Positions 5,319-25,929 of a stretch of 64,000 nt of DNA are shown one piece after another. Each line of letters opens with the position of its first letter. Position 1 is the stretch's first letter. The notes below the pieces were generated by a model. It saw only the letters and a program-made list of their open reading frames with translations. It was not told the DNA's origin and made no database searches. Source of the DNA: an uncultured Acidobacteriota bacterium (GTDB taxonomy: Bacteria > Acidobacteriota > Thermoanaerobaculia > Multivoradales > UBA5704). The stretch is taken from positions 1,537,430 to 1,601,429 of the forward strand of contig CAVWNC010000003.1 in the NCBI GenBank assembly GCA_963756455.1. Reading direction: 5' to 3'. The position numbers and the translations under genes are program-made.

Positions 5319-8756
<3,438 letters not shown>

Positions 8757-14969: not shown

Positions 14970-17069
14970 TCAGGCCGCCCGGCGCGCCGCTGCCCGGACC
15001 CGGACCCTGAAGTTGGCCGCGGACCCACCCGTGTCGTCGAACCAGCAGACCCCTTCCTGGACGACCGTGATGCGGAGCCGGTAGGCCCCGGGCTCTGCCG
15101 GGACCGGGATGCGCGTCGTGACCTCCGTCGAGGCCCCCGGCGGGACATCCCGGGGGAGACGGGAACGCTCACCTTCGGCGACGACGACGCCTCCCTGGTC
15201 GTTCAGCCAGCGATAGCCGACCGCCACCCGATAGATCCCGGTGTCGAACGTGCCCACGGCGGACCAGGGGCGGTCGCTCCGGTTGGTCACGGTGACCGGC
15301 ACGCTCAGAGTCTCTCCCGGCAGCACAACACCGGGGACCCGGGCGACGATCCCGGCGCGCGGGTGGAGGAGCGGCCGAGGGTTCACGATCGGCGGCAGCA
15401 GGCGCCGATGCTCCGGGCTGGTATAGACGAGATTGCCGTCGATCGTGCGCACGACGAAGGGCCGGCCGGCGAGCCGGGCGGGGAAGCCGGCGCGCGCCGC
15501 CTCCTCGGGACCGCCGAAGACATAGGCCTCGGTCGACAGGGTCGCCACCCGCTGTGAATAGAGAGGATAGCGGTCCCAGTCCTCAAGCGGGGTCACGACG
15601 ACCTGCTCGCCGGAGAGGAGGGTCACCTTGTAGGAGATCCAGTAGTTGCCGTAGCCCCCCGAGATCCCCTCCTGGCGGAGATACCGCAGGACGTCCGTCA
15701 TCGGGTCCGGCGGATGGAGGAGCCGGAGCCGTGCGTCGAGATAGCCCGAGTCCTCGTGCCAGCGGGCGATCTGTACCAGAGGGAACGCCACGAGGAGAGC
15801 CCCGAGAAGCCAGGCGGCGAGCCGGGCCGATCGCTTCCCGGTCCCGGGCCTGCCGCCGAGCCGGACGAGGAGAGCCCCGGCGAGCACCGGCAGGCTGGTG
15901 AGCCAGGGGAGCAGGTAGCGGTTGGAGAACGCATCCTGGGGATTGGGGCTGAGAACGAAGAGCAGCCCCACGATGGGCACGAGGAGGACGACAAGGGTTG
16001 CGGCGTCGAGCTCTCCGGGCGGCCGCCTGAAGGCGCTCCGGACTCGCGGCCAGGCTCGCAGAGCGCCGGCTCCCCAGGCCGTGAGGTACACCGCGGCGAC
16101 GAGGAGGCCGAGGACACCCGAGAGCAGCCACGGGTGGCGGCCCACCGTTTCGCCGAGCCGCGGGTCCGCTCCCGGATCGATGCCGAGGAACGCCGGGATG
16201 CACTGGGTGACGAGGAGTCGCAGATTGGCGAAGGCCGCCCGGGGATGGGCGAGGGCATAGATCGGCCGCTTGCCGGCGGCCGAGGTTCCGGTCAAGAGGA
16301 GGGCGAGCTTGGGCGCCCACCCGAGAACGAATCCGGCGAGAAACAGGGCCGCACGGCCGAGGATCTGGGGAAAGGTGCGGATCTCGCGCTCGGCCGCCGC
16401 GCGGTCGGGAGCGAGGAGCACCCGCCAGGGGAGCGAGGCGACCACCCAGGCGCAGGCGAGGGTCGCCACGTAAACCAGGAAGAGCTCGTAGATGTAGAGC
16501 CCGAACCCCACCATGAAACCGAGACCGACGAGTCGGGCGAGGCTGGGCGCCGCCCGATACCGGTCGAATTGGACGAAGGTGAGGGTCCCCCACGCGACGA
16601 CCAGAGCATAGCCGCCGCTCGCGAGGACGCTCCACTGCACGACCTGGGGAGAGAACCCGAGGAGGAGAGCGGCCGCGGCGAGGCCGGCAGCCGAGCCGTA
16701 GAGCCGCCGGCCGAGGAGGAAGACCCCCACCATCAGGGCGAGAAAGCCGACGAGCGACCCGAGCTTCGAGGCGAGCGGGATCGCGAGTCCCGCGGCGAGA
16801 AAGGGGATGGTGAGGATACCTTCGACGATGCCGTAATAGTGGGCATCCCAGTTGTAGAGCGTCAGCTCTCCCCGGTGGAGCAGGTGCTGGACGACCAGGG
16901 CGTCGACCGCTTCATCGGCATTGAAGCTGCGGGTGGCATTGGCGAGCCAGGGAAGCCGCGGCAGAATGCTCAAAGCGAGCAGAAGCACCAGCAGACCCCA
17001 GACGAGGAGCGGGCGGGACTCCCACCCTGAGGCGGGAGGCGTCGGCCTCTCCGGGCTCGGTTCACTCAC
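14970..17069 (-). CDS. GT-C superfamily membrane glycosyltransferase (ArnT/PMT, GT39-like) with a C-terminal periplasmic domain
   Basis: The N-terminal ~450 aa has about 12 TM helices with an organisation typical of dolichyl-phosphate-mannose / undecaprenyl-phosphate sugar transferases. A soluble beta-rich C-terminal domain follows. Confidence 0.75.
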   Translation of the reverse strand: MSEPSPERPTPPASGWESRPLLVWGLLVLLLALSILPRLPWLANATRSFNADEAVDALVVQHLLHRGELTLYNWDAHYYGIVEGILTIPFLAAGLAIPLASKLGSLVGFLALMVGVFLLGRRLYGSAAGLAAAALLLGFSPQVVQWSVLASGGYALVVAWGTLTFVQFDRYRAAPSLARLVGLGFMVGFGLYIYELFLVYVATLACAWVVASLPWRVLLAPDRAAAEREIRTFPQILGRAALFLAGFVLGWAPKLALLLTGTSAAGKRPIYALAHPRAAFANLRLLVTQCIPAFLGIDPGADPRLGETVGRHPWLLSGVLGLLVAAVYLTAWGAGALRAWPRVRSAFRRPPGELDAATLVVLLVPIVGLLFVLSPNPQDAFSNRYLLPWLTSLPVLAGALLVRLGGRPGTGKRSARLAAWLLGALLVAFPLVQIARWHEDSGYLDARLRLLHPPDPMTDVLRYLRQEGISGGYGNYWISYKVTLLSGEQVVVTPLEDWDRYPLYSQRVATLSTEAYVFGGPEEAARAGFPARLAGRPFVVRTIDGNLVYTSPEHRRLLPPIVNPRPLLHPRAGIVARVPGVVLPGETLSVPVTVTNRSDRPWSAVGTFDTGIYRVAVGYRWLNDQGGVVVAEGERSRLPRDVPPGASTEVTTRIPVPAEPGAYRLRITVVQEGVCWFDDTGGSAANFRVRVRAAARRAA

Positions 17070-17199
17070 GCGCGGACGCCTGGGTGCCGTAGCGCGGAGG
17101 CGGGGAAGGGGCGGGCGGGGGCCATAGGGCGGCTATTTTAGCCGTTGCGGCCGGGTAGTGCCGTGGAGGAGTCTGGTGATGGCGGGGCGCGTCGAACCT

Positions 17200-18177
17200 T
17201 CAACCCGTGAAAACAGAGGTCTGCGAGGGGATCGGCGCATGGAAAGCGAGCACGTCCTCCAACTCGATCTCCCAGCAGTTTTCGAGAGCAGCGGGGATGG
17301 AGCGGATGATCACGCTCGGGATATCGCCGGGAATCTCCAGGTCATAGCTGTCGGGGTACTGCCCCTCCAGTCTGTTCGTGAGCCGGATCTTGATCGACCC
17401 CAAGGCGGGGCGCCTCTTGGGCGGGTGGAAATCGAGACGGAGGCCGATTGAGGTGAGATCGGCCCGAGTGAGATAGAGGCCATGATGCAGAAAGGTCGAA
17501 GAAGGGACCTGCTCGATGACGATCTGATCCCGGAAGCCTGGCTTATCCTCACCGAGCAGGTGAAGCAGGGTGCGCCGATCCAGCGGAGTTCTACAGACCA
17601 CGAAGCGGAGATGCTGTGACAGTGGCAACCGCCCAGGTACGACGACCTCAGCCATTCGGGCGTCCTGAATGGACTCTTTGTCCATGACATCGGGAACGGA
17701 GTCGTGGTAAACCCACTCGAAAGGAATCTGATCGAAAAGGCGAATGTCTCTACCGATCTGGCGTCTTCTCGACAGCATGCCTGGAGAGAACCCGACCTCA
17801 GGAAGCGTGAGGACGGACAAGGCATCGAAGACCAGCATGATCGGGACCGACATCTGATACCTGTCCCGATAGGGATCATCACGGCACTTTATGCCCTCGG
17901 TTTTGAAATGAAAATTGTTTTTGGGCCTGAAGTAGAGGCGGACAGAGCCGTGAGGCTGCGGGTTATTGTGTAAGGCTCCCTGATTTGCGACGTCGTGCTT
18001 GATGGTGCCCAGTCGGCTCCTGCAGATGAGGTGGCCCGAGCGGAGAATCTCGACCGCTGTCGTTACATGGGCTGCGTGGAAAAGATATTTCGGCCAGAGG
18101 CTATTACGGGAGAAGAGGCCTGACCACCCGGACCACTCGGCGATATGCCGTGCGGCCCGCTCCGGTGTCAGGCCCAC
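17200..18177 (-). CDS. darT: DarT-like ssDNA ADP-ribosyltransferase (DUF4433) with a ~120-aa C-terminal extension
   Basis: It aligns block by block with Thermus DarT: YLFHAAHV (cf. IYHITHI), VRLYFRPK (cf. VPFYFCPR), and DARMAEVVVPGRLPLSQHLRFVVC (cf. KQAEFLVYKAFPWALIEEIAVY, including the catalytic Glu). Its start overlaps the 3' end of the macrodomain gene by 10 nt. Local G+C is reduced. Confidence 0.65.
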   Translation of the reverse strand: MGLTPERAARHIAEWSGWSGLFSRNSLWPKYLFHAAHVTTAVEILRSGHLICRSRLGTIKHDVANQGALHNNPQPHGSVRLYFRPKNNFHFKTEGIKCRDDPYRDRYQMSVPIMLVFDALSVLTLPEVGFSPGMLSRRRQIGRDIRLFDQIPFEWVYHDSVPDVMDKESIQDARMAEVVVPGRLPLSQHLRFVVCRTPLDRRTLLHLLGEDKPGFRDQIVIEQVPSSTFLHHGLYLTRADLTSIGLRLDFHPPKRRPALGSIKIRLTNRLEGQYPDSYDLEIPGDIPSVIIRSIPAALENCWEIELEDVLAFHAPIPSQTSVFTG

Positions 18178-19061
18178 AACTTTCCCTGGACCTGCTCGCG
18201 CCTGGCCTCCACGTGAAGGGAGGGGCGGCGCTCACGGAAAAACAAGCCATGGCCTGGCTGGTAGGCATTCCCACGCAAATGTTGAATCTTGGCAGCCTGC
18301 ACATAAGGAAGGCGAGCCAGGACGCTCAACAGATAGTCGTTGTGCCGACGGGAGAGCTCTCCGTCCAACTGATCCGCTGTCAGTAGTCCCACCTGAAGAG
18401 CAGACCATGCGGTCTCGAGCTCTTCGTGGAGAACCTTCTCCTTTTCACCGGACTCGTGGATCTCCAGATCGCCATTGTCGAGGATCGCGGCGGTGAAAAG
18501 CGAGTCGCGGTCCAGGGTTTCGAAGGAAGGCTCAGCAGTCAGCGTGCGGATGTCGTCCAGGAAATGCTCATAGTCGACCGCCGGCGGGATCTTCTCCAAG
18601 TGCTCGGGTACGAAGTCCGTTGCCACGTACCGCTCATGAACGTAGACCTGAATAGGCAGATCTTGGAGGTAGGACTCGATCAGCGGCTTGACGTCCGCCC
18701 AGTCAAGATTGCCATTGCCACAGCCGAGCGGCGGGAAGGAAATCGAGGTGATCCCGAGATTTTCATAGCTCGCCACGAACTTCTCGAGCCCTTCCCTCAC
18801 ATAGGGGAGGGTCGAGGGAAGGCGCCATGTGGTTTTGGTCGGGAAGTTGAGGACCCACTTGTCCGGTCCCCTCCATAGCTGGAGCGTCCCGGTCCGCAGC
18901 TCTCCCCGGTCGCAGAGCCACTTGTACTCCCCGAACATTTCGGGATACCGCTCCTTGAAGCTTTTCGCGATCCCCTTCCCCATGACTCCGACGGTGTTGA
19001 CCGCATTGACCAGCGTCTGGGCGGGTGAGGCGAAGAGGTCGGTTTGAAGGTAGACGATCAT
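18168..19061 (-). CDS. darG: DarG-type (TARG1-like) macrodomain protein with a C-terminal domain; putative DarG antitoxin
   Basis: The N-terminal motifs TDLFASPAQTLVNAVNTVGVMGKGIAKSFKERYPEMF and ...ISFPPLGCGNGNLDW match the TARG1/DarG macrodomain. A ~150-aa C-terminal region is unassigned. Confidence 0.75.
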   Translation of the reverse strand: MIVYLQTDLFASPAQTLVNAVNTVGVMGKGIAKSFKERYPEMFGEYKWLCDRGELRTGTLQLWRGPDKWVLNFPTKTTWRLPSTLPYVREGLEKFVASYENLGITSISFPPLGCGNGNLDWADVKPLIESYLQDLPIQVYVHERYVATDFVPEHLEKIPPAVDYEHFLDDIRTLTAEPSFETLDRDSLFTAAILDNGDLEIHESGEKEKVLHEELETAWSALQVGLLTADQLDGELSRRHNDYLLSVLARLPYVQAAKIQHLRGNAYQPGHGLFFRERRPSLHVEARREQVQGKLWA

Positions 19062-19127
19062 CCAGGCCCCCTGCGGCTTTACCCCTCGAAGTGTAACGGC
19101 ATTTGCGGCGTAAGTCGAGCGTTATGG

Positions 19128-19164
19128 GGGGAGATTCGGAGGAGATTCGGGGGAGATTCTGGGG
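19128..19164. repeat. Three tandem copies of a ~11-nt unit (GGAGATTCGG) about 70-100 nt upstream of the darG start
   Basis: The sequence is gggggagattcggaggagattcgggggagattctgggg. It is a candidate operator or promoter-associated repeat for the darG-darT operon. Confidence 0.6.
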
Positions 19165-19175
19165 CAGCCCCTCGC

Positions 19176-20975
19176 TCACGCGAAGATCCGCGGCGGCTCG
19201 GGGATCGGGGGTACGTCCTCGGCGGTGAGGACTTGGCCCCGGGGATCCTGGTAACGCCCCTGGCCTAAGTCCAGAAGGCAGCGGTTGCGGCCGCGGCGCT
19301 TCGCTTCGTAGAGGGCGCCGTCGGCGAAGAGGAGCAGCTCCGAGGCGGTCTTGATGTGGAGCTCGGGGAAGGCGGCCACCCCCGCCGACATCGTGAGGGG
19401 GACCCGGTGCTCGCCGGCGGTGAATTCCAGGGCTTCGACGGAACGACGCAGGCGATCGGCGATGGCGAGGGCGGTGTCGCCGTCCGTCGCTTCCAAGAGG
19501 AGGGTGAACTCCTCGCCGCCGTAGCGGCAGCAGAGATCGGTGTCGCGGCGGGCGCCGTCCAGGATACGGGCGACGGCGATCAGGGCCTCGTCGCCCGCGC
19601 CGTGACCGTAGGTGTCGTTGATCCGCTTGAAGAAGTCGAGGTCGCAAAGGACGACCGCCATCGTGCCCCCCTCTTCGAGGCAGCGGGCGTGGACCTCCTG
19701 CAGCCGGCGCTCCAGCACCCGGCGGACGACGACTCCGGTGAGGGGGTCCTCGCGCGCCTCGCGATCCAGGAGCGAGCGGTGGATCGAGGCCGCCATCTGC
19801 GGGAGGAGGCGATCGAGGAGACCGAGGGCATCCGGTTCGAGACGCCGGGGATCGCACCAGAGGCGCAGAGTGGCGAGAGAGACGCCGTCCGAACGCAGGT
19901 TGCGCTCGAGAACCTGCCAGGGGGCCCGGCGGTGGAAGCCGTGGAGGGAGGGCGGATAGCGCTCGGGCTCCGGGGCGCCGGGGGCGAGCTCGCCCTCGTG
20001 GGCCGCGTACCAGCTCTTCGCCGGGTTGCCCGGCGCGGTGAGCTCGAACTGGAACCAGTGAAAGGGGACGACGTGGCCGCACTCGTCGCGGATCTGCTCG
20101 ACGACCGCGACGAGCTCCTGGCCCGTGCCGCGGACCTTCTCGGCCGCTTTGTGCACCTTCTCCATGTTCTCGTACCGCTCGTCCGAGACCTCGGAGCGCA
20201 GGGCGTTTCTCGCCGCTTCGAGGCTCAGGGCGGCGAAGCCCACGAGGAGGAGGCCCCCCACCGTCCAGCCGGCGGTCTGGCCGGCGCGCGCCGCGGCGGT
20301 GCCGAGGATCCAGGCCGCGGCATCGAGGAGCGGCGGCAGGAAGAGGGGGCCGGGGAGGAGCGGGCGGTCGGGGCGACGGATCTTTCTGTCCGCAGCCTCC
20401 AGGCCGATCCAGAGGACCAGGTAGGCGGCGAGCCCCCAGGCCGAGGCGAGGGCGAGCGTCCGTGCCTCGTCGCCCGGAGGAAGCCGGCGGGCGGTCCACT
20501 CCCAGGCGAGGCCCGCTCCGAGAGCAGCGAGGGCGGCGCGTCCGGTGCTTTCGAGCGAACGCACGACCCGCCGCCGCTCGGGGAGCTGGACGGCGGGGCT
20601 CCGCCGGGCCAGACGCTGGAAGAGCTCGGCGACGAGGAACGCCGCGGCGGCGAGGCAGGCGGCGGGGACGGCCCCGGCGAGCAGGAGCGCGGCCGGCAGG
20701 ACCACCGCCCCGAGCCCCAAGGTCGCCCCCCCCAGGGGCGGCCGGTGCCAGGCCGCCGCGGCGCCGCAGAAGACGAGGACGAGGAGCAGCCCGGCGCCGG
20801 CCGGTCCGGCGCTCCAGGCGAAGGGCGGAAAGCGCGCCACGACGAGGAGGGCCAAGGCCGCCCCGGCCGTGGGCAGGAGAGAGGCCCAGAGGTCCCGGCG
20901 GGAAGGGGAGGCGGAGCGTTTCATCAGGGATCGTGAGAGCTGAGGCATGGTACGCGCTCGGTGAAGCGGTGGCAA
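19176..20975 (-). CDS. Membrane-anchored GGDEF-domain diguanylate cyclase
   Basis: The N-terminal half is hydrophobic (6-8 helices). The C-terminal GGDEF domain has RYGGEEF and an inhibitory-site-like region. The start may be at the internal Met (20948). Confidence 0.85.
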   Translation of the reverse strand: MPPLHRARTMPQLSRSLMKRSASPSRRDLWASLLPTAGAALALLVVARFPPFAWSAGPAGAGLLLVLVFCGAAAAWHRPPLGGATLGLGAVVLPAALLLAGAVPAACLAAAAFLVAELFQRLARRSPAVQLPERRRVVRSLESTGRAALAALGAGLAWEWTARRLPPGDEARTLALASAWGLAAYLVLWIGLEAADRKIRRPDRPLLPGPLFLPPLLDAAAWILGTAAARAGQTAGWTVGGLLLVGFAALSLEAARNALRSEVSDERYENMEKVHKAAEKVRGTGQELVAVVEQIRDECGHVVPFHWFQFELTAPGNPAKSWYAAHEGELAPGAPEPERYPPSLHGFHRRAPWQVLERNLRSDGVSLATLRLWCDPRRLEPDALGLLDRLLPQMAASIHRSLLDREAREDPLTGVVVRRVLERRLQEVHARCLEEGGTMAVVLCDLDFFKRINDTYGHGAGDEALIAVARILDGARRDTDLCCRYGGEEFTLLLEATDGDTALAIADRLRRSVEALEFTAGEHRVPLTMSAGVAAFPELHIKTASELLLFADGALYEAKRRGRNRCLLDLGQGRYQDPRGQVLTAEDVPPIPEPPRIFA

Positions 20976-21071
20976 TCGGCGAATCGGCGAATCGGCGAGG
21001 CAGGGCGCGCGATGGGGCTCCCGATCCTCTATGCTCTGCGGCGCCGCTCACCGATCTTCCACCCACTTGCC

Positions 21072-22577
21072 ATGCGCCGCCTGCCCGTCTTCCTCGCTCT
21101 CGTCACCCTGCTCACGCTGGCACTGATCGCCGCGGTCTGGCTGCGGCTGCCGGGCGTGAACGGCCCCGGGGAATGGCGGTGGGAGTACCGTACTCCTGGG
21201 CTCGACGGCGGTCCGCTCGCCCTCCTCCTCGCCCTCGCCGTCCTGATGATCGCCGCCGTTCTCCGCAACAGCGGCCGTTTCGCCGGCTCGCGGACCGGCC
21301 TCACCCTCCTGGTCGGCCTCGGATTCGGGCTCACCCTGGCGGTCGAGAGCGCCCAGCCCGGTGGATTCGGCCGGGTGCTCCAGTCGCTCGTCTCCCGGCA
21401 CAGCTTCAGCTATGTCTACGACGCCGGGGTGGCTCCCGGGACCCGGGAGCTGCTCGCCGACTTTCCGGCCGCGAGCGAGGATCTCGACCTGCACTCCCGC
21501 ACCCACCCGCCAGGCCCCCTTCTTCTCGTGCGCGGGCTGGATGTTTTGACCCGCGGTTTCGCGGTGCCTGGCGAAGAGCTGGCAGGATCGGGGCAGGGGC
21601 TGGTGATCCGGGCGCGCGACGCCTTCGACCGCGAGATCCGCCGGGCTCGTGAGCGCGGCCGGCCGGTGCCGGAAACGCCGGCTGGACCGTGGTCCGTTCT
21701 CACCCTGGCCTTTCTCCTCCCGGCCCTCTCCGCCCTCGCCGCCTGGCCCCTCCACCGTCTCGCCCGCGCCTGGGGCCTGTCGCCCGAGGCGTCGGCGCTC
21801 GCCGTCCTCCTCTGGCTGCTCACCCCGGCACGGTCGCTCTTCACCCCGTCTTTAGACCAGGCTCTGCCGCTCCTTCTCGTGGGGGCGGCGGCGCTCGCCG
21901 CGTCGGGCGGCAGGGCGCGCGCGGGTGCCGCGGGCCTCCTCGCCGCCGCGGCCTGCTTCCTGAGCTACGGCTGCCTCGCCGTTCTTCCCTGGCTCGGCCT
22001 CGTAGTCCTCGCCGCCGATCCACGCGTGGATCCTCAGGAGCCAACGCCCTGGCGGCAGCGTTCCGTCTGGGTCCGGGCGGTGCTCCTGGGAGTCGGCTTC
22101 CTCGCTCCCTGGGCGATCCTCTCGCTGGCGACCGGCTACGCTCCCTGGCGAGACTTCCGGATCGCCATCGCCGCCCACCGGGGAATGGCGGTTCTGACCC
22201 GTTCCTATTCCACCTGGGTGGGCTGGAATCTCTATGACTTCACCCTCCTCCTCGGCCCGGCGGTCGTCGGCTTCGCGGGCTTGGCGCTCGTCGGCTTCGG
22301 GCGAGGGCGGCTTTCGCGACCGTTCCGGTGGGGGCTCTGGAGCTTCTGGGGGCTCCTCCTTCTCCTCGACCTCTCGGGAAGCGTGCGCGGCGAGGTAGGA
22401 CGGATCTGGCTCTTCCTCATGCCGCTCGCCGGCCTCTTCGCCGCCGCGGCGCTCGTCGACTCCCGGGGCGAGGCTCGCCCGCCCACCAGCCACCCGGCCG
22501 GAGAGATGGCGATCGTTGCCGTCCTTGAGCTCGCCCTCCTCCTCACGCTCGCCGCGAATCTCGTCTTCGTGAGCTAG
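21072..22577 (+). CDS. Polytopic membrane protein, possible GT-C-type glycosyltransferase or membrane remodelling protein
   Basis: About 12 predicted TM helices and no soluble domain. The start was chosen at MRRLPVFLAL. The function is not determinable from sequence alone. Confidence 0.55.
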   Translation: MRRLPVFLALVTLLTLALIAAVWLRLPGVNGPGEWRWEYRTPGLDGGPLALLLALAVLMIAAVLRNSGRFAGSRTGLTLLVGLGFGLTLAVESAQPGGFGRVLQSLVSRHSFSYVYDAGVAPGTRELLADFPAASEDLDLHSRTHPPGPLLLVRGLDVLTRGFAVPGEELAGSGQGLVIRARDAFDREIRRARERGRPVPETPAGPWSVLTLAFLLPALSALAAWPLHRLARAWGLSPEASALAVLLWLLTPARSLFTPSLDQALPLLLVGAAALAASGGRARAGAAGLLAAAACFLSYGCLAVLPWLGLVVLAADPRVDPQEPTPWRQRSVWVRAVLLGVGFLAPWAILSLATGYAPWRDFRIAIAAHRGMAVLTRSYSTWVGWNLYDFTLLLGPAVVGFAGLALVGFGRGRLSRPFRWGLWSFWGLLLLLDLSGSVRGEVGRIWLFLMPLAGLFAAAALVDSRGEARPPTSHPAGEMAIVAVLELALLLTLAANLVFVS

Positions 22578-22587
22578 CGCTGGCGGC

Positions 22588-25500
22588 TCAGCCCCCCACC
22601 TGCATCGGCGGCAGCTCCGGCAGCAGCCGGAGGTCGGAGTCCCCAACTTTTTTCCGGAACGCGGCCACGTCCTCGGCCGCGAAGCGGTTCAGAGCGTCGA
22701 CCGCGTCTTTCGTCGTCTGGCGGGCGATCTCCAGGTAGGCCTCCTGGGCGGGAGTCGGGGCGTCCCAAGAGGACTGGAGCGACTGGAGAGCGCGGCCGAT
22801 CTTCGACTGGGCGTCGTTGTCGGGGAGCTCTCCCTCTTCGGTCGGGGCGTGCCAGAAGCGCTGCTCCAGGGTCTTGAGCTTGTCGAGGAGCTTCTGGCTG
22901 GCGTCGGTGATCTCCTTGGTGGCCGGATCGGGCTTCGTCGTGTCCTCGCGGCGCTTCCTCTCGTCGTCGTTCTTCTTCACCTGGGCCGTCAGCGCCTGGA
23001 CGTCGGTGCGGATGCGGCCGATGCGCTCGACGGCGTTGGCGATCGTCTCCTGGAGGGCGCCGCTCTCCGCAAAGGCTTTCTCGCGCGCGTCGCGGGCGGT
23101 CTGCGGGATGTCGAAGCGCGGATCGGGGAGCACCTGGAGCCTCCCCTCCGCCTTGTGGTCGCCGTAGGTCACCCGCACGCGGTAGGTTCCGGGCATCACT
23201 TCGGGTCCAGCGTCGCGGAAGAAGCCACCGCGGTTGCGCCGGTTGGGCGACTTGTAGGACTTGCGGCCGAGGTCCCAGACCGCCCGGTTGATACCGAGGG
23301 TCGCGGGCTGCTCGAAGCTCCGGATCACCTTGCCCGAGACGTCGAGGATCTCGATCCGCGCCTTGGGTCCGTCTTTGTCTCTGCCGCCTCCCCCCCTGCC
23401 ACCGTCCCCCGGCGGTTTCCCGCCGGCCGGAGCCACCGTGGGCTGGTCCTCGCCGGAGGACCGCGCCTCCCGTTCGGCGGCGAGGGCCTTCTCGCGCTCT
23501 TTTTCGAGCTCGGCGTTCTTCCGGTCCCGCTCCGCCTGGGCGTCCGGCAGAGGGAGACCGGGAACGTTCAGGGTATAGGTGATGAGAGCGCCGTAGGGCC
23601 GGCCGTCCCCGCGGTACTCGCCGGTGCCGGGGAAGTGACTGCCGCCCGGTTGCCCCACCCGGTGCTGGATGGTGTCGGAGATCTCGAAGAGATGGAGCGG
23701 CTCCTTCAAAACCGCCGGCGAGAGGGTGCGGAGGGGGCGGATGTCGTCGATGATGTAGATGCCGCGGCCATGGGTGGCGGCGATCAGGTCGCCCTCCCGG
23801 GGCTGGATGGCGAGGGCCATATAGGAGGTCGTGGGGAGGCCGCCCTTCAAGGGGAGCCAGGCCTTGCCGCCGTCCTCTGTAAACCAGAGGCCGTACTCGG
23901 TGCCCAGGAAGAGGAGGTTCCGGTCGACCGGGTCCTCGACGGTCGCGAGGGCGTAGCCGCGGAGGTCCGGGGTGACCAGGCTCTGCCAGGTGCGGCCGAA
24001 GTCGGTCGTCCTGACGACATAGGGGGCGACGTCGGAGCGGCGGTGGTTGTCGAAGACGACGTAGGCGGTCCCGGCGTCGAACCGGGAGGCGGTGATCTGG
24101 GGGATCCAGGTATGGGCGGGCACGCCGTGGACGTTCCCCTCGACGCTCTGCCAGGTCTTGCCGCCGTCCCGGGTCACCTGGAGGCGGCCGTCGTCGGTCC
24201 CCACCCAGATCACCCCACGCTCCAGGGGTGAGGGAGCGATGGCGAGAAGGGTCGTGAAGTTCTCCGCCGCCGTGGCGTCGATGATCAGGCCGCCGCTCTC
24301 GTCCTGGTGCTGCCACTCCGGCCGGTTGGTCGTCAGATCGGGAGAGATCACCGTCCAGGTCTCGCCGCGGTCGGTCGAGCGGTGGAGGTACTGGCTCCCC
24401 AGGTAGATCGTGTCGGGATCGAAGGGATCGACGGCGAAACCGGTGTTCCAGTTGAAGCGCAGCTTGCCGCCCGCGGGAGGCGCCGGCTGGATGTCCTTGC
24501 GCTCGCCGCGGTTCAAATCCCAGCGCACCAGGTGGCCGCCCTGGGAGAGCGAGTAGCCGCGGCTGGGGTCCTTGAGATCCGGAGCGGTGTCGAAGCCGTC
24601 CCCGAAGCCCACCTCCTTCCAGTCGGAGTTGCGGATGCCGCCGTTCACCCAGACCGTGCTCGGACCCTTCCAGGCACCGTTGTCCTGCATGCCGCCGTAG
24701 ACGTTGTAGGGCACGGCATCGTCGAAGCGCACGTGGTAGAACTGGGGGATCGGCAGGTTCTGCACGTAAGCCCAGTTCTTCCCCCGGTCGCGCGAGATCG
24801 CCACGCCGCCGTCGTTGCCGAGGAGGATGTTGTTCCCATCCCTGGGATCGATCCAGATGGCATGGAAGTCCGGGTGGACGTCTCTGAACGGCACCAGGGT
24901 GCTCCAGGTCTTGCCGCCGTCGTCCGAGCTGTCGACCTCGGTCGCCAGGCGGTAGATGCGGTCGGCGTCCTGGGGATCGACGGCGATGTGCGAGAAGTAG
25001 AAGGGGCGGGAGGTGACGTTGGGCTCGCTGTTGATGCTCTTCCAGGTCCGGCCGTCGTCGTCCGAGCGCAGGAAGGCGCTCTGCTTGGCCTCGACCAGGG
25101 CATAGACCCGCCGCGGGTCACCGGGGGCGAAGGCGAGGGCGATCCGGCCGAGGTTCCCCTTCGGCAGGCCGTCCTCCTCGGTCAGCCGCTTCCAGGTCTC
25201 ACCGCCGTCGTGGCTCTCGAAGAGCCCGGAGCCCGGGCCGCCGGAGCGGAAGAACCAGGGCCAGCGGCGGAACTGCCACATCGCGGCATAGAGATGGTCA
25301 GGATTGCCGGGCTCGGCCACCAGATCGGCGGCACCGGTCTTGTCGTCGACGTAGAGAACCTTCCGCCAGCTCTTCCCGCCGTCCTCGGTCTTGAAGATGC
25401 CGCGCACCGGACCGTCCCCCCAGGCGGGACCCAGGGCCGCCACCCAGGCCACCCGTGGGTCGGTGGGGTGGAGGACGATCTTAGGGATGCGCTCGCTGCC

Positions 25501-25929
25501 GTCGAGCCCCAGGTGAGCCCAGGTCTTGCCGCCGTCGAGCGACTTGTAGACCCCGTTGCCCAGCGAGACGCTGTTTCGCGGGTTGGCCTCGCCGGTCCCC
25601 ACCCAGACGATGTCGGGACTCTGGGGATGGGTGGCGATGGCGCCGATCGAGGCGACCTCTTGGTCGTCGAAGATCGGCTCCCAGGTGAGACCGGCGTCGA
25701 GCGACTTCCAGACCCCGCCCGCGGCGGCCCCCACGTAGACGATCGACGGGTTGGACGCCACAGCCTCGACCGCGGCGACCCGCCCGCTGACGACCGACGG
25801 ACCGATCGAGCGCGCCCGGAGGCCCGCAAGGAGGGTCGGGTCGAAGGCGGGGGCGGCGACGAGCGGTGCTGCCAGTAGAACGGCGAGGGTGAGAACGAGC
25901 GGCAAGGCGGCGGACGGGGAGCTCTTCAT
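22588..25929 (-). CDS. Secreted sortilin/VPS10-type BNR (Asp-box) repeat protein with a C-terminal coiled-coil/low-complexity region
   Basis: There is a signal peptide. Multiple S-x-D-G-G-x-T-W Asp-box repeats (SLDGGKTW, TEDGGKSW, SHDGGETW, SDDGGKTW, TRDGGKTW...) span two propeller-like halves. Confidence 0.8.
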   Translation of the reverse strand: MKSSPSAALPLVLTLAVLLAAPLVAAPAFDPTLLAGLRARSIGPSVVSGRVAAVEAVASNPSIVYVGAAAGGVWKSLDAGLTWEPIFDDQEVASIGAIATHPQSPDIVWVGTGEANPRNSVSLGNGVYKSLDGGKTWAHLGLDGSERIPKIVLHPTDPRVAWVAALGPAWGDGPVRGIFKTEDGGKSWRKVLYVDDKTGAADLVAEPGNPDHLYAAMWQFRRWPWFFRSGGPGSGLFESHDGGETWKRLTEEDGLPKGNLGRIALAFAPGDPRRVYALVEAKQSAFLRSDDDGRTWKSINSEPNVTSRPFYFSHIAVDPQDADRIYRLATEVDSSDDGGKTWSTLVPFRDVHPDFHAIWIDPRDGNNILLGNDGGVAISRDRGKNWAYVQNLPIPQFYHVRFDDAVPYNVYGGMQDNGAWKGPSTVWVNGGIRNSDWKEVGFGDGFDTAPDLKDPSRGYSLSQGGHLVRWDLNRGERKDIQPAPPAGGKLRFNWNTGFAVDPFDPDTIYLGSQYLHRSTDRGETWTVISPDLTTNRPEWQHQDESGGLIIDATAAENFTTLLAIAPSPLERGVIWVGTDDGRLQVTRDGGKTWQSVEGNVHGVPAHTWIPQITASRFDAGTAYVVFDNHRRSDVAPYVVRTTDFGRTWQSLVTPDLRGYALATVEDPVDRNLLFLGTEYGLWFTEDGGKAWLPLKGGLPTTSYMALAIQPREGDLIAATHGRGIYIIDDIRPLRTLSPAVLKEPLHLFEISDTIQHRVGQPGGSHFPGTGEYRGDGRPYGALITYTLNVPGLPLPDAQAERDRKNAELEKEREKALAAEREARSSGEDQPTVAPAGGKPPGDGGRGGGGRDKDGPKARIEILDVSGKVIRSFEQPATLGINRAVWDLGRKSYKSPNRRNRGGFFRDAGPEVMPGTYRVRVTYGDHKAEGRLQVLPDPRFDIPQTARDAREKAFAESGALQETIANAVERIGRIRTDVQALTAQVKKNDDERKRREDTTKPDPATKEITDASQKLLDKLKTLEQRFWHAPTEEGELPDNDAQSKIGRALQSLQSSWDAPTPAQEAYLEIARQTTKDAVDALNRFAAEDVAAFRKKVGDSDLRLLPELPPMQVGG

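Follow-up and report, generated by a model that had tools for sequence, protein, structure and literature searches.

The gene pair on the minus strand at positions 17200–19061 of the window, i.e. the whole 64,000-nucleotide stretch of contig CAVWNC010000003.1 from an uncultured Acidobacteriota bacterium, is likely to form a two-gene operon of the DarTG kind, a toxin-antitoxin module based on reversible ADP-ribosylation of nucleic acids, and to represent a distinct, uncharacterised subfamily. An initial annotation had suggested a variant DarTG-type module, and this is borne out by a DarG-type macrodomain in the upstream protein, a DarT fold with the catalytic Glu in the downstream protein, the reversed gene order and additional domains in both partners. 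The two open reading frames (ORFs) have the annotated lengths of 297 and 325 aa and contain the peptide strings quoted there; the record holds entries identical to both (P0121 for the macro protein, P0381 for the DarT-like protein). A chance resemblance can be discounted because the family matches of the two proteins have E-values between 1e-10 and 1e-58 and their structural models are confident. The module is composed of the following parts (window coordinates; aa, amino acids; nt, nucleotides).

18168–19061, minus strand: macro (DarG-like) gene, 297 aa, ATG start; putative antitoxin and predicted ADP-ribosyl glycohydrolase
18636–19061, minus strand: DarG-type macrodomain, aa 1–142
18582–18635, minus strand: linker, aa 143–160, with an invariant D-F-V-P-E-H motif (F150, E153, H154)
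18234–18581, minus strand: family-specific alpha/beta C-terminal domain, aa 161–276
18168–18177, minus strand: 10-nt gene overlap between the macro stop TGA (18168–18170) and the DarT-like start GTG (18175–18177)
17200–18177, minus strand: DarT-like gene, 325 aa, GTG start; putative toxin and predicted ADP-ribosyltransferase
18088–18177, minus strand: N-terminal helix extension, aa 1–30, absent from canonical DarT
17542–18087, minus strand: DarT-fold catalytic domain, aa 31–212, with H34, Y82 and E177 at the H-Y-E positions
17203–17541, minus strand: family-specific C-terminal region, aa 213–325, with an FN3/Ig-like beta-sandwich at about aa 234–315 in the model

The annotated relationship of the macro protein to TARG1/DarG-type macrodomains is confirmed by a Pfam Macro match (59.2 bits, aa 18–126), by phmmer searches and by conserved catalytic residues. 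Against the sequences of the PDB, phmmer retrieved the DarG macrodomains of Mycobacterium tuberculosis and Thermus aquaticus with E ~4e-34 and human TARG1 with E ~4e-9, and in every search the best macrodomain matches were those of M. tuberculosis and Thermus DarG, ahead of TARG1. The identity to the macrodomains of DarTG2-type DarG proteins amounts to 42–46%. In T. aquaticus DarG (TaqDarG) the activity is impaired by mutating N22, K29, the catalytic K80 or G119, and W83 and G121 have been noted on structural grounds (PMC5179494). The residues N22, K29, K80, W83, G119 and G121 of TaqDarG correspond to N22, K29, K76, W79, G115 and G117 of the macro protein, and all six are invariant in an alignment of 27 family sequences, including W79, which corresponds to the Trp with a proposed stacking role on the ADP-ribosylated thymine. 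As judged from the sequence, the domain is of the DarG/TARG1 class and carries the catalytic Lys.

The relationship to DarG ends with the macrodomain. The PADLOC DarG profile scores 196.6 bits on the macro protein and covers profile positions 1–145 of 329 only; likewise, the NCBIfam equivalog NF048014 (antitoxin_DarG) reaches 184.8 bits over positions 2–149 of 338 only, below its cut-off of 250, compared with 465.6 and 420.7 bits over positions 1–338 for the canonical DarG controls of Meiothermus and Burkholderia. A profile built from the C-terminal region of the family gave no match at E <= 10 to three canonical DarG proteins and none among PDB sequences or Pfam families, and a comparison with solved structures revealed no similar fold. 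The C-terminal domain, left unassigned in the initial annotation, is a real and conserved domain; it is not the canonical DarT-binding domain of DarG, which is replaced here by an unrelated one. The AlphaFold model predicts the domain well between about residues 164 and 275, with a low-confidence tail, and assigns values of the predicted local distance difference test (pLDDT) below 50 to residues 146–156 of the preceding linker. This linker contains D-F-V-P-E-H, the most conserved motif of the macro protein family outside the macrodomain, whose invariant columns recur in two family alignments. Because an invariant motif sits in a linker predicted to be disordered, we consider the unusually conserved DFVPEH segment a candidate short linear interaction motif, for which a role in partner binding is conceivable.

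The DarT-like protein is recognised by the Pfam DarT profile (PF14487) with 42.1 bits, above the gathering threshold of 22.5, over aa 33–209 and profile positions 1–184 of 201; canonical controls reach 198–225 bits. PADLOC DarT scores 19.6 bits. The NCBIfam equivalog NF048013 (toxin_DarT; cut-off 150 bits) gave no match at E <= 1, and a family member from Agrobacterium obtained 27.2 bits compared with 249.5, 243.4 and 161.6 bits for the controls from Meiothermus, Burkholderia and Klebsiella. No match at E <= 10 was found by phmmer among PDB chains, and a profile of 28 family sequences reaches Thermus DarT at E ~0.02 only. The closest solved relatives of its ADP-ribosyltransferase fold are nevertheless DarT enzymes, with comparison figures of 19.0 for Thermus DarT2 (7omv), 17.2 for M. 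tuberculosis DarT (7yk3_C) and 15.4 for E. coli C7 DarT1 (8baq), the next fold being Tpt1/KptA (7.9). H34 is near-invariant, and Y82, in the invariant R-L-Y-F-R-P block, as well as E177, in A-E-V-V-V, are invariant. By sequence alignment only, these residues correspond to the canonical YHITH, YFCPR and AEFLV segments and E177 to E160 of the T. aquaticus enzyme (TaqDarT); the AEVVV stretch matches the canonical QAEFLV catalytic-Glu segment. The family has in addition its own invariant residues R53, R80, R84, Y157-H158 and R196. The assignment as a DarT-like ADP-ribosyltransferase with a catalytic Glu is thus upheld by the Pfam score and by AEVVV/E177, and the alignment of its catalytic segments with Thermus DarT holds, but not the closeness implied, given an identity of 16–17% and the missing phmmer and NCBIfam matches.

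The catalytic domain is flanked on both sides. Profile alignments to canonical DarT start at family positions 29–32, and the preceding N-terminal extension forms a helix in the model (residues 5–19) and contains the invariant W28. The extra C-terminal domain noted earlier is real and conserved as well; its predicted structure is an FN3/Ig-like beta-sandwich, for which neither a Pfam family nor a solved relative was found. We conclude that the DarT-like protein belongs to a separate lineage and is not a DarT2 with an appendix. The HMM (hidden Markov model) check recommended in the initial annotation accordingly has two sides: Pfam DarT and the macrodomain are recognised, but both NCBIfam equivalog cut-offs are failed.

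Relatives were collected by an exhaustive profile search of 1.84 billion representative proteins clustered at 50% identity, which assigned 1695 clusters to the DarT-like family at E <= 1e-3 and 718 at E <= 1e-30; nearly all of the top 150 clusters are full-length proteins of 315–345 aa. A taxonomic scan with one genome per species yielded 169 relatives in more than 10 phyla, among them members of the Acidobacteriota, Alphaproteobacteria, Burkholderiaceae, Chloroflexota, Bacillota, Planctomycetota, Myxococcota, NC10, Nitrospirales, Bacteroidota, Latescibacterota and Schekmanbacteria. The gene order was derived from domain HMMs run on the ORFs of 82 sources: the window itself, L001 and a retained set of 80 loci (L002–L081). 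In all 78 informative loci the macro gene immediately precedes the DarT-like gene in the same orientation, the remaining four being devoid of upstream DNA; the module consists of two genes only in all surveyed loci, and the beta-sandwich extension was detected in nearly all of them. The pairing of the macro and DarT-like genes is obligate. A stop/start overlap occurs in 63 loci, measuring 4 nt in 33, 10 nt in 15 and 16 nt in 9, sizes which are approximate as start sites were set by proximity to the N-terminus of the HMM. The overlap reported for the window (18168–18177) is exact and suggests, from its arrangement in the sequence, translational coupling. In the canonical plasmid loci L082, L084 and L086, which are from Klebsiella (L084), Meiothermus and Burkholderia, DarT comes first, with a protein of ~212 aa followed by a DarG of ~350 aa. 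The inverted order and extended DarT highlighted in the initial annotation are therefore present but not peculiar to this genome, being fixed traits of a family of 718–1695 clusters.

A few copies deviate from this uniform picture. Two of them look as if they were decaying: in L027 (5749–6900) a break separates the part of the DarT-like gene for the catalytic domain from that for the beta-sandwich, and in L066 (5042–6969) the macro gene is in two pieces and the DarT-like ORF lacks the N-terminus. On a Rhizobium binae plasmid (NZ_CP071607.1, ~358.9–364.6 kb) an intact gene for the macrodomain plus C-terminal domain (95% query coverage) is found ~4 kb apart from a DarT-like match restricted to aa 123–321 under the label ‘hypothetical protein | transposase’; here the disruption of a module may have left the antitoxin as an orphan.

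The observed catalytic folds with their conserved catalytic residues, the obligate pairing, the coupled arrangement and the size and spread of the family form the basis for a scenario of the function of the module. The DarT-like protein would act as an NAD+-dependent ADP-ribosyltransferase that probably modifies a base of single-stranded DNA (ssDNA) and blocks replication, and the DarG-type macrodomain encoded upstream would remove this ADP-ribose. A DNA base, possibly thymine, is the presumed substrate because the partner has DarG-type specificity and all characterised DarTs act on DNA bases. As the antitoxin gene comes first and its stop overlaps the toxin start, toxin synthesis would depend on prior translation of the antitoxin, so that the toxin is made only by ribosomes fresh from the antitoxin. 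This antitoxin-first, coupled layout is the usual one of type II toxin-antitoxin systems and is lacking in canonical DarTG. In analogy to DarTG2, the toxin is likely to be controlled additionally by direct binding between the two proteins, here via non-homologous parts such as the DFVPEH linker, the alpha/beta domain of the macro protein and possibly the rigidly packed FN3-like domain of the transferase; our preferred candidate is the disordered DFVPEH linker, which might become ordered on the toxin. Biologically, the module would most likely serve plasmid or locus addiction and/or phage defence by abortive infection. The two genes have the hallmarks of a toxin-antitoxin pair in being small, adjacent, co-oriented and co-inherited, with a patchy spread and mobile contexts. 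DNA mimicry by acidity was also considered and set aside, the net charge per domain being inconsistent across the family and the C-terminal domains of canonical DarG proteins being not net acidic.

Several points weigh against this interpretation. The transferase shares just 16–17% identity with characterised DarTs, and at this level the alignment is unreliable; as it stands, it places no Arg in the column of Arg51 of DarT2 and a variable M/K/N/R in that of His119, residues to which proton abstraction and thymine reading, respectively, are ascribed in DarT2 (PMC11543638). The charge pattern of the domains, inconsistent across the family, lends no clear support to binding roles of the extra domains. 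In this genome the module has ordinary chromosomal genes around it, lacks defence or mobile genes in its vicinity and is passed on vertically, a setting compatible with domesticated regulation as much as with defence. Toxicity, its neutralisation, a DNA (thymidine) target, the roles of the extra domains and defence are parts of the scenario that we infer.

A more far-reaching proposal, which we put forward tentatively as possible but less likely than not, is that the family constitutes a third major DarTG lineage with a base or sequence specificity unlike those of DarT1 (guanine) and DarT2 (thymine in TNTC) or even another nucleic-acid substrate, and that its lineage-specific domains, the FN3-like sandwich of the toxin as well as the DFVPEH linker and alpha/beta domain of the antitoxin, provide a new toxin-antitoxin lock or phage-sensing switch unrelated to the ssDNA-mimicking C-terminal domain of DarG.

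The lower G+C content of the module, already noticed in the initial annotation, is confirmed, with 58.7% compared with 71.6% in the 5 kb on either side and 68.6% in the whole window. This deviation is shared by the family: in 69 of 70 loci the module has a higher A+T content than its flanks, the mean difference being 10 points, and in this clade its G+C content stays ~10–13 points below that of the host. The low G+C is for this reason a property of the cassette. Elsewhere the family occurs on a conjugative Agrobacterium Ti plasmid beside Phd/VapC, on symbiosis plasmids, at the edge of an Azospirillum prophage and grouped with genes for a type IIG restriction enzyme, RhuM and a PLD-helicase, as well as in housekeeping neighbourhoods, e.g. 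in Mesorhizobium (alaS) and near dnaA in a metagenome-assembled genome (MAG) of the Dehalococcoidia. The distribution over more than 10 phyla, the plasmid, prophage-edge and defence contexts and the persistent AT-richness argue for a horizontally mobile cassette. In the Azospirillum argentinense locus (L087) a small HTH_3/HTH_31 gene (6703–6993) immediately precedes the macro gene, and the DarT-like gene is followed by phage genes for capsid, portal and terminase; this cassette may be carried by a prophage or border on one.

Whether the horizontal acquisition initially proposed was a recent island insertion is another matter. The low G+C and the mobility of the family agree with horizontal acquisition, but a recent insertion is contradicted by the comparison with related genomes that had been recommended: the module shares its insertion site, behind one and the same GGDEF gene (76–88% identical), with four relatives from the Thermoanaerobaculia/Acidobacteriota (L001–L004), all with intact modules and two of them sharing a 699-aa membrane protein downstream. 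Scans of the window for tRNAs and an integrase found none, and the sole flanking direct repeat (14 nt, 13/14 matching) extends into the coding part of the GGDEF gene and probably arose by chance. We therefore reject a recent island and conclude that the module is old and vertically inherited in this lineage. Among the four relatives the identities to the window proteins are 54–71% for the DarT-like and 77–83% for the macro protein, which hints, on sequence comparison, at faster evolution of the toxin than of its partner and neighbours.

The same observations favour, up to a point, a reading with identical biochemistry in which the module has been domesticated in this lineage and reversible DNA ADP-ribosylation tunes replication or gene expression instead of serving addiction or phage defence. 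The site is syntenic in four diverged genomes, housekeeping neighbours surround the module here, in Mesorhizobium and in the Dehalococcoidia MAG, mobile-element genes, tRNAs and credible flanking repeats are missing around it, and a precedent is provided by the DarTG system of M. tuberculosis, which is reported to coordinate growth and transcription (PMC12170906). A selfish or defensive cassette is nonetheless the better fit because of the G+C content ~10–13 points below the host, the fast-diverging transferase (54–71% identity compared with 76–88% for neighbours), the occurrence on plasmids, prophage edges and in defence clusters elsewhere, and the existence of decayed copies; we thus consider domestication unlikely, albeit the most serious of the conflicting explanations.

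Slightly less credence is given to a transferase directed at RNA or protein, whose FN3-like domain would bring in the target and whose modification the macrodomain would reverse. Contacts between proteins are the usual function of FN3/Ig-like domains, which would suit such a role. The transferase has diverged strongly from the two characterised DarTs, and the residues equivalent to those that handle the base in DarT2 were not identified by alignment. Moreover, TARG1-class macrodomains can also act on protein- and phosphate-linked ADP-ribose (PMC11833690). Against this stand the partner macrodomain, which is specifically of the DarG type and keeps W79, and the fact that all characterised DarT-fold enzymes modify DNA bases.

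That the locus is an ordinary DarTG2 system, a thymidine-specific DarT plus DarG with merely swapped gene positions, appears improbable in the light of the homology data: canonical DarT2 proteins score 243–250 bits on the NCBIfam DarT profile, on which the DarT-like protein gives no match and a family member 27 bits; canonical DarG proteins obtain 421–466 bits over the full length, compared with 184.8 bits over the macro half only; the DarT-binding C-terminal domain is replaced, and the transferase is enlarged by an N-terminal helix and an FN3-like domain. Since this architecture is uniform across hundreds of clusters, a separate lineage is the better description. That an old insertion is decaying here and has lost its function, for which the split or truncated members L027 and L066 and the apparently interrupted Rhizobium plasmid copy near a transposase might be quoted, can be dismissed almost entirely, as both ORFs are full-length here with intact invariant and catalytic residues and a preserved overlap, and the orthologues in the four relatives are intact, too.

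Upstream of the module, separated from the macro start by a 114-nt spacer, ends a co-oriented diguanylate-cyclase gene of the GGDEF type (19176–20975; Pfam GGDEF 144.7 bits), which lies 5' of the module. The spacer contains two elements.

19127–19164, no strand assigned: tandem repeat shortly past the GGDEF stop codon, with an 11-nt period and ~3.5 copies (plus strand, GGGGGAGATTC)
19090–19121, minus strand: conserved upstream block, CGCTCGACTTACGCC...TACACT, with the candidate promoter TCGACT, 17 nt, TACACT

The tandem repeat (88% match, TRF score 62) was also found as a repeat family by a repeat search. It had been described as a triple repeat in the putative promoter region and does exist, but with a period of 11 instead of 10, in ~3.5 copies and not as a conserved regulatory element: its 10-mer has 11 matches elsewhere in the window compared with 11 expected, i.e. 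no enrichment, and it is absent from L001–L004 in an alignment of the intergenic regions. A conserved operator or promoter was consequently rejected for the repeat, which is probably incidental and unique to this genome. The upstream block, past which the repeat lies further upstream, is conserved in L001–L003 and might be the module promoter, as read from a TCGACT-17-TACACT arrangement agreeing with the consensus at 8 of 12 positions; a strict sigma-70 scan of 16900–19400 called no promoter. An RNA element or type III antitoxin was rejected on the basis of an Rfam scan of 16800–19500 that gave no match at E <= 1. Further outside, the GGDEF gene and the module are flanked by two apparently polytopic membrane proteins, encoded at 14970–17069 (minus strand, 699 aa) and 20961–22577 (plus strand, 538 aa), which belong to no Pfam family and share 75–78% identity with their counterparts in L001 and L002. 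They are followed by a 1113-aa protein (22588–25929, minus strand) with sortilin/Vps10 and BNR/Asp-box repeats (Pfam Sortilin-Vps10, 102.6 bits), which is apparently unrelated to the module.

To our knowledge, DarT enzymes are the only family for reversible, sequence-directed ADP-ribosylation of DNA bases; they are relevant in phage defence and in the growth control of M. tuberculosis, and DarT2 has been used as a genome-editing tool (PMC13368585). With 16–17% identity to the two characterised subfamilies the present lineage is an obvious place for new base or motif specificities and, being large, phylogenetically broad and uncharacterised, a promising source of enzymes. As the DarG macrodomain has been retained and the DarT-binding domain replaced, the antitoxin further allows one to study, as a natural experiment, how the direct inhibition of a toxin can be built anew. 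Censuses of defence and toxin-antitoxin systems may undercount the pair because the NCBIfam equivalogs miss or underscore it and the PADLOC DarT score is marginal. For this genome alone the significance is modest, as the kind of system is already known and its copy is one family-typical, vertically inherited cassette.

LeRoux et al. 2022 reportedly defined DarTG1 and DarTG2, and Schuller et al. 2021 are said to have distinguished five groups of DarT. Three arrangements are recognised in the literature consulted, DarTG1 (DarT1 plus NADAR), DarTG2 (DarT2 plus macrodomain) and DarHTG (2026; PMC13069673), and a published tree of ~5,000 DarT sequences is discussed in terms of earlier groupings only. 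In the literature searched we found no description of a macro-first subfamily with an extended DarT, members of which may be included in the supplementary phylogenies of earlier DarT studies; database labels of the relatives are generic (‘DarT family protein’, ‘macro domain-containing protein’). A different kind of extended DarT is encoded on the Klebsiella pneumoniae plasmid p4-KP21300 (L084:1170–2504), where a canonical-type DarT2 of 444 aa (NCBIfam DarT, 161.6 bits) carries a C-terminal HD domain (Pfam HD, 29.1 bits) and is followed by a 371-aa DarG-like macro protein.

Among the known systems, DarTG2 (T. aquaticus, M. tuberculosis Rv0059/Rv0060 and enteropathogenic E. coli) is among the closest, its DarT2 ADP-ribosylating N3 of thymidine in ssDNA at TNTC-type motifs; it is likewise a two-gene operon of a DarT-fold ADP-ribosyltransferase with H-Y-E residues and a bipartite antitoxin made of a DarG-type macrodomain, with the same catalytic Lys, Asn, Trp and Gly loops at 42–46% identity, and a C-terminal domain. 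The present module differs by the reversed order with a coupled overlap, by a transferase that is 16–17% identical, has 325 instead of ~212 aa and carries an extra N-terminal helix and a C-terminal FN3-like domain, by an antitoxin C-terminal domain unrelated in sequence, and by the failure of both proteins at the NCBIfam equivalogs; an association with type I restriction-modification operons was not seen in the loci examined. DarTG1 of E. coli C7 uses a NADAR antitoxin instead of a macrodomain, and NADAR was found in neither protein by Pfam and NCBIfam searches; its toxin DarT1 is a guanosine ADP-ribosyltransferase with Ser63 in place of the Tyr of H-Y-E, which is kept here as Tyr82, and its structural similarity to the DarT-like protein is below that of DarT2. 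In the DarT-macro fusion of Thermosipho africanus (PDB 7OMU) both activities reside in one polypeptide with DarT N-terminal and the macrodomain C-terminal, whereas the present module distributes them over two proteins, encoded in the reverse order and each extended by another domain. DarHTG (Liu-DS3), which consists of DarT, an ARH-type DarG3 and a UvrD-like helicase (NAR 2026, PMC13069673), is another recent non-canonical variant in which a DarT toxin is combined with different partners; neither the helicase nor the ARH-type hydrolase occurs here, where the antitoxin is a macrodomain protein. The stand-alone macrodomains TARG1 (human) and SCO6735 (Streptomyces) are of the same class with the catalytic lysine at the same position, and both can remove thymidine-linked ADP-ribose. 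Taking the reversed and coupled gene order, the divergent DarT core with its FN3-like appendage, the DarG macrodomain joined to a non-canonical C-terminal domain and the equivalog failure together, the module is best classed as a distinct DarTG lineage.

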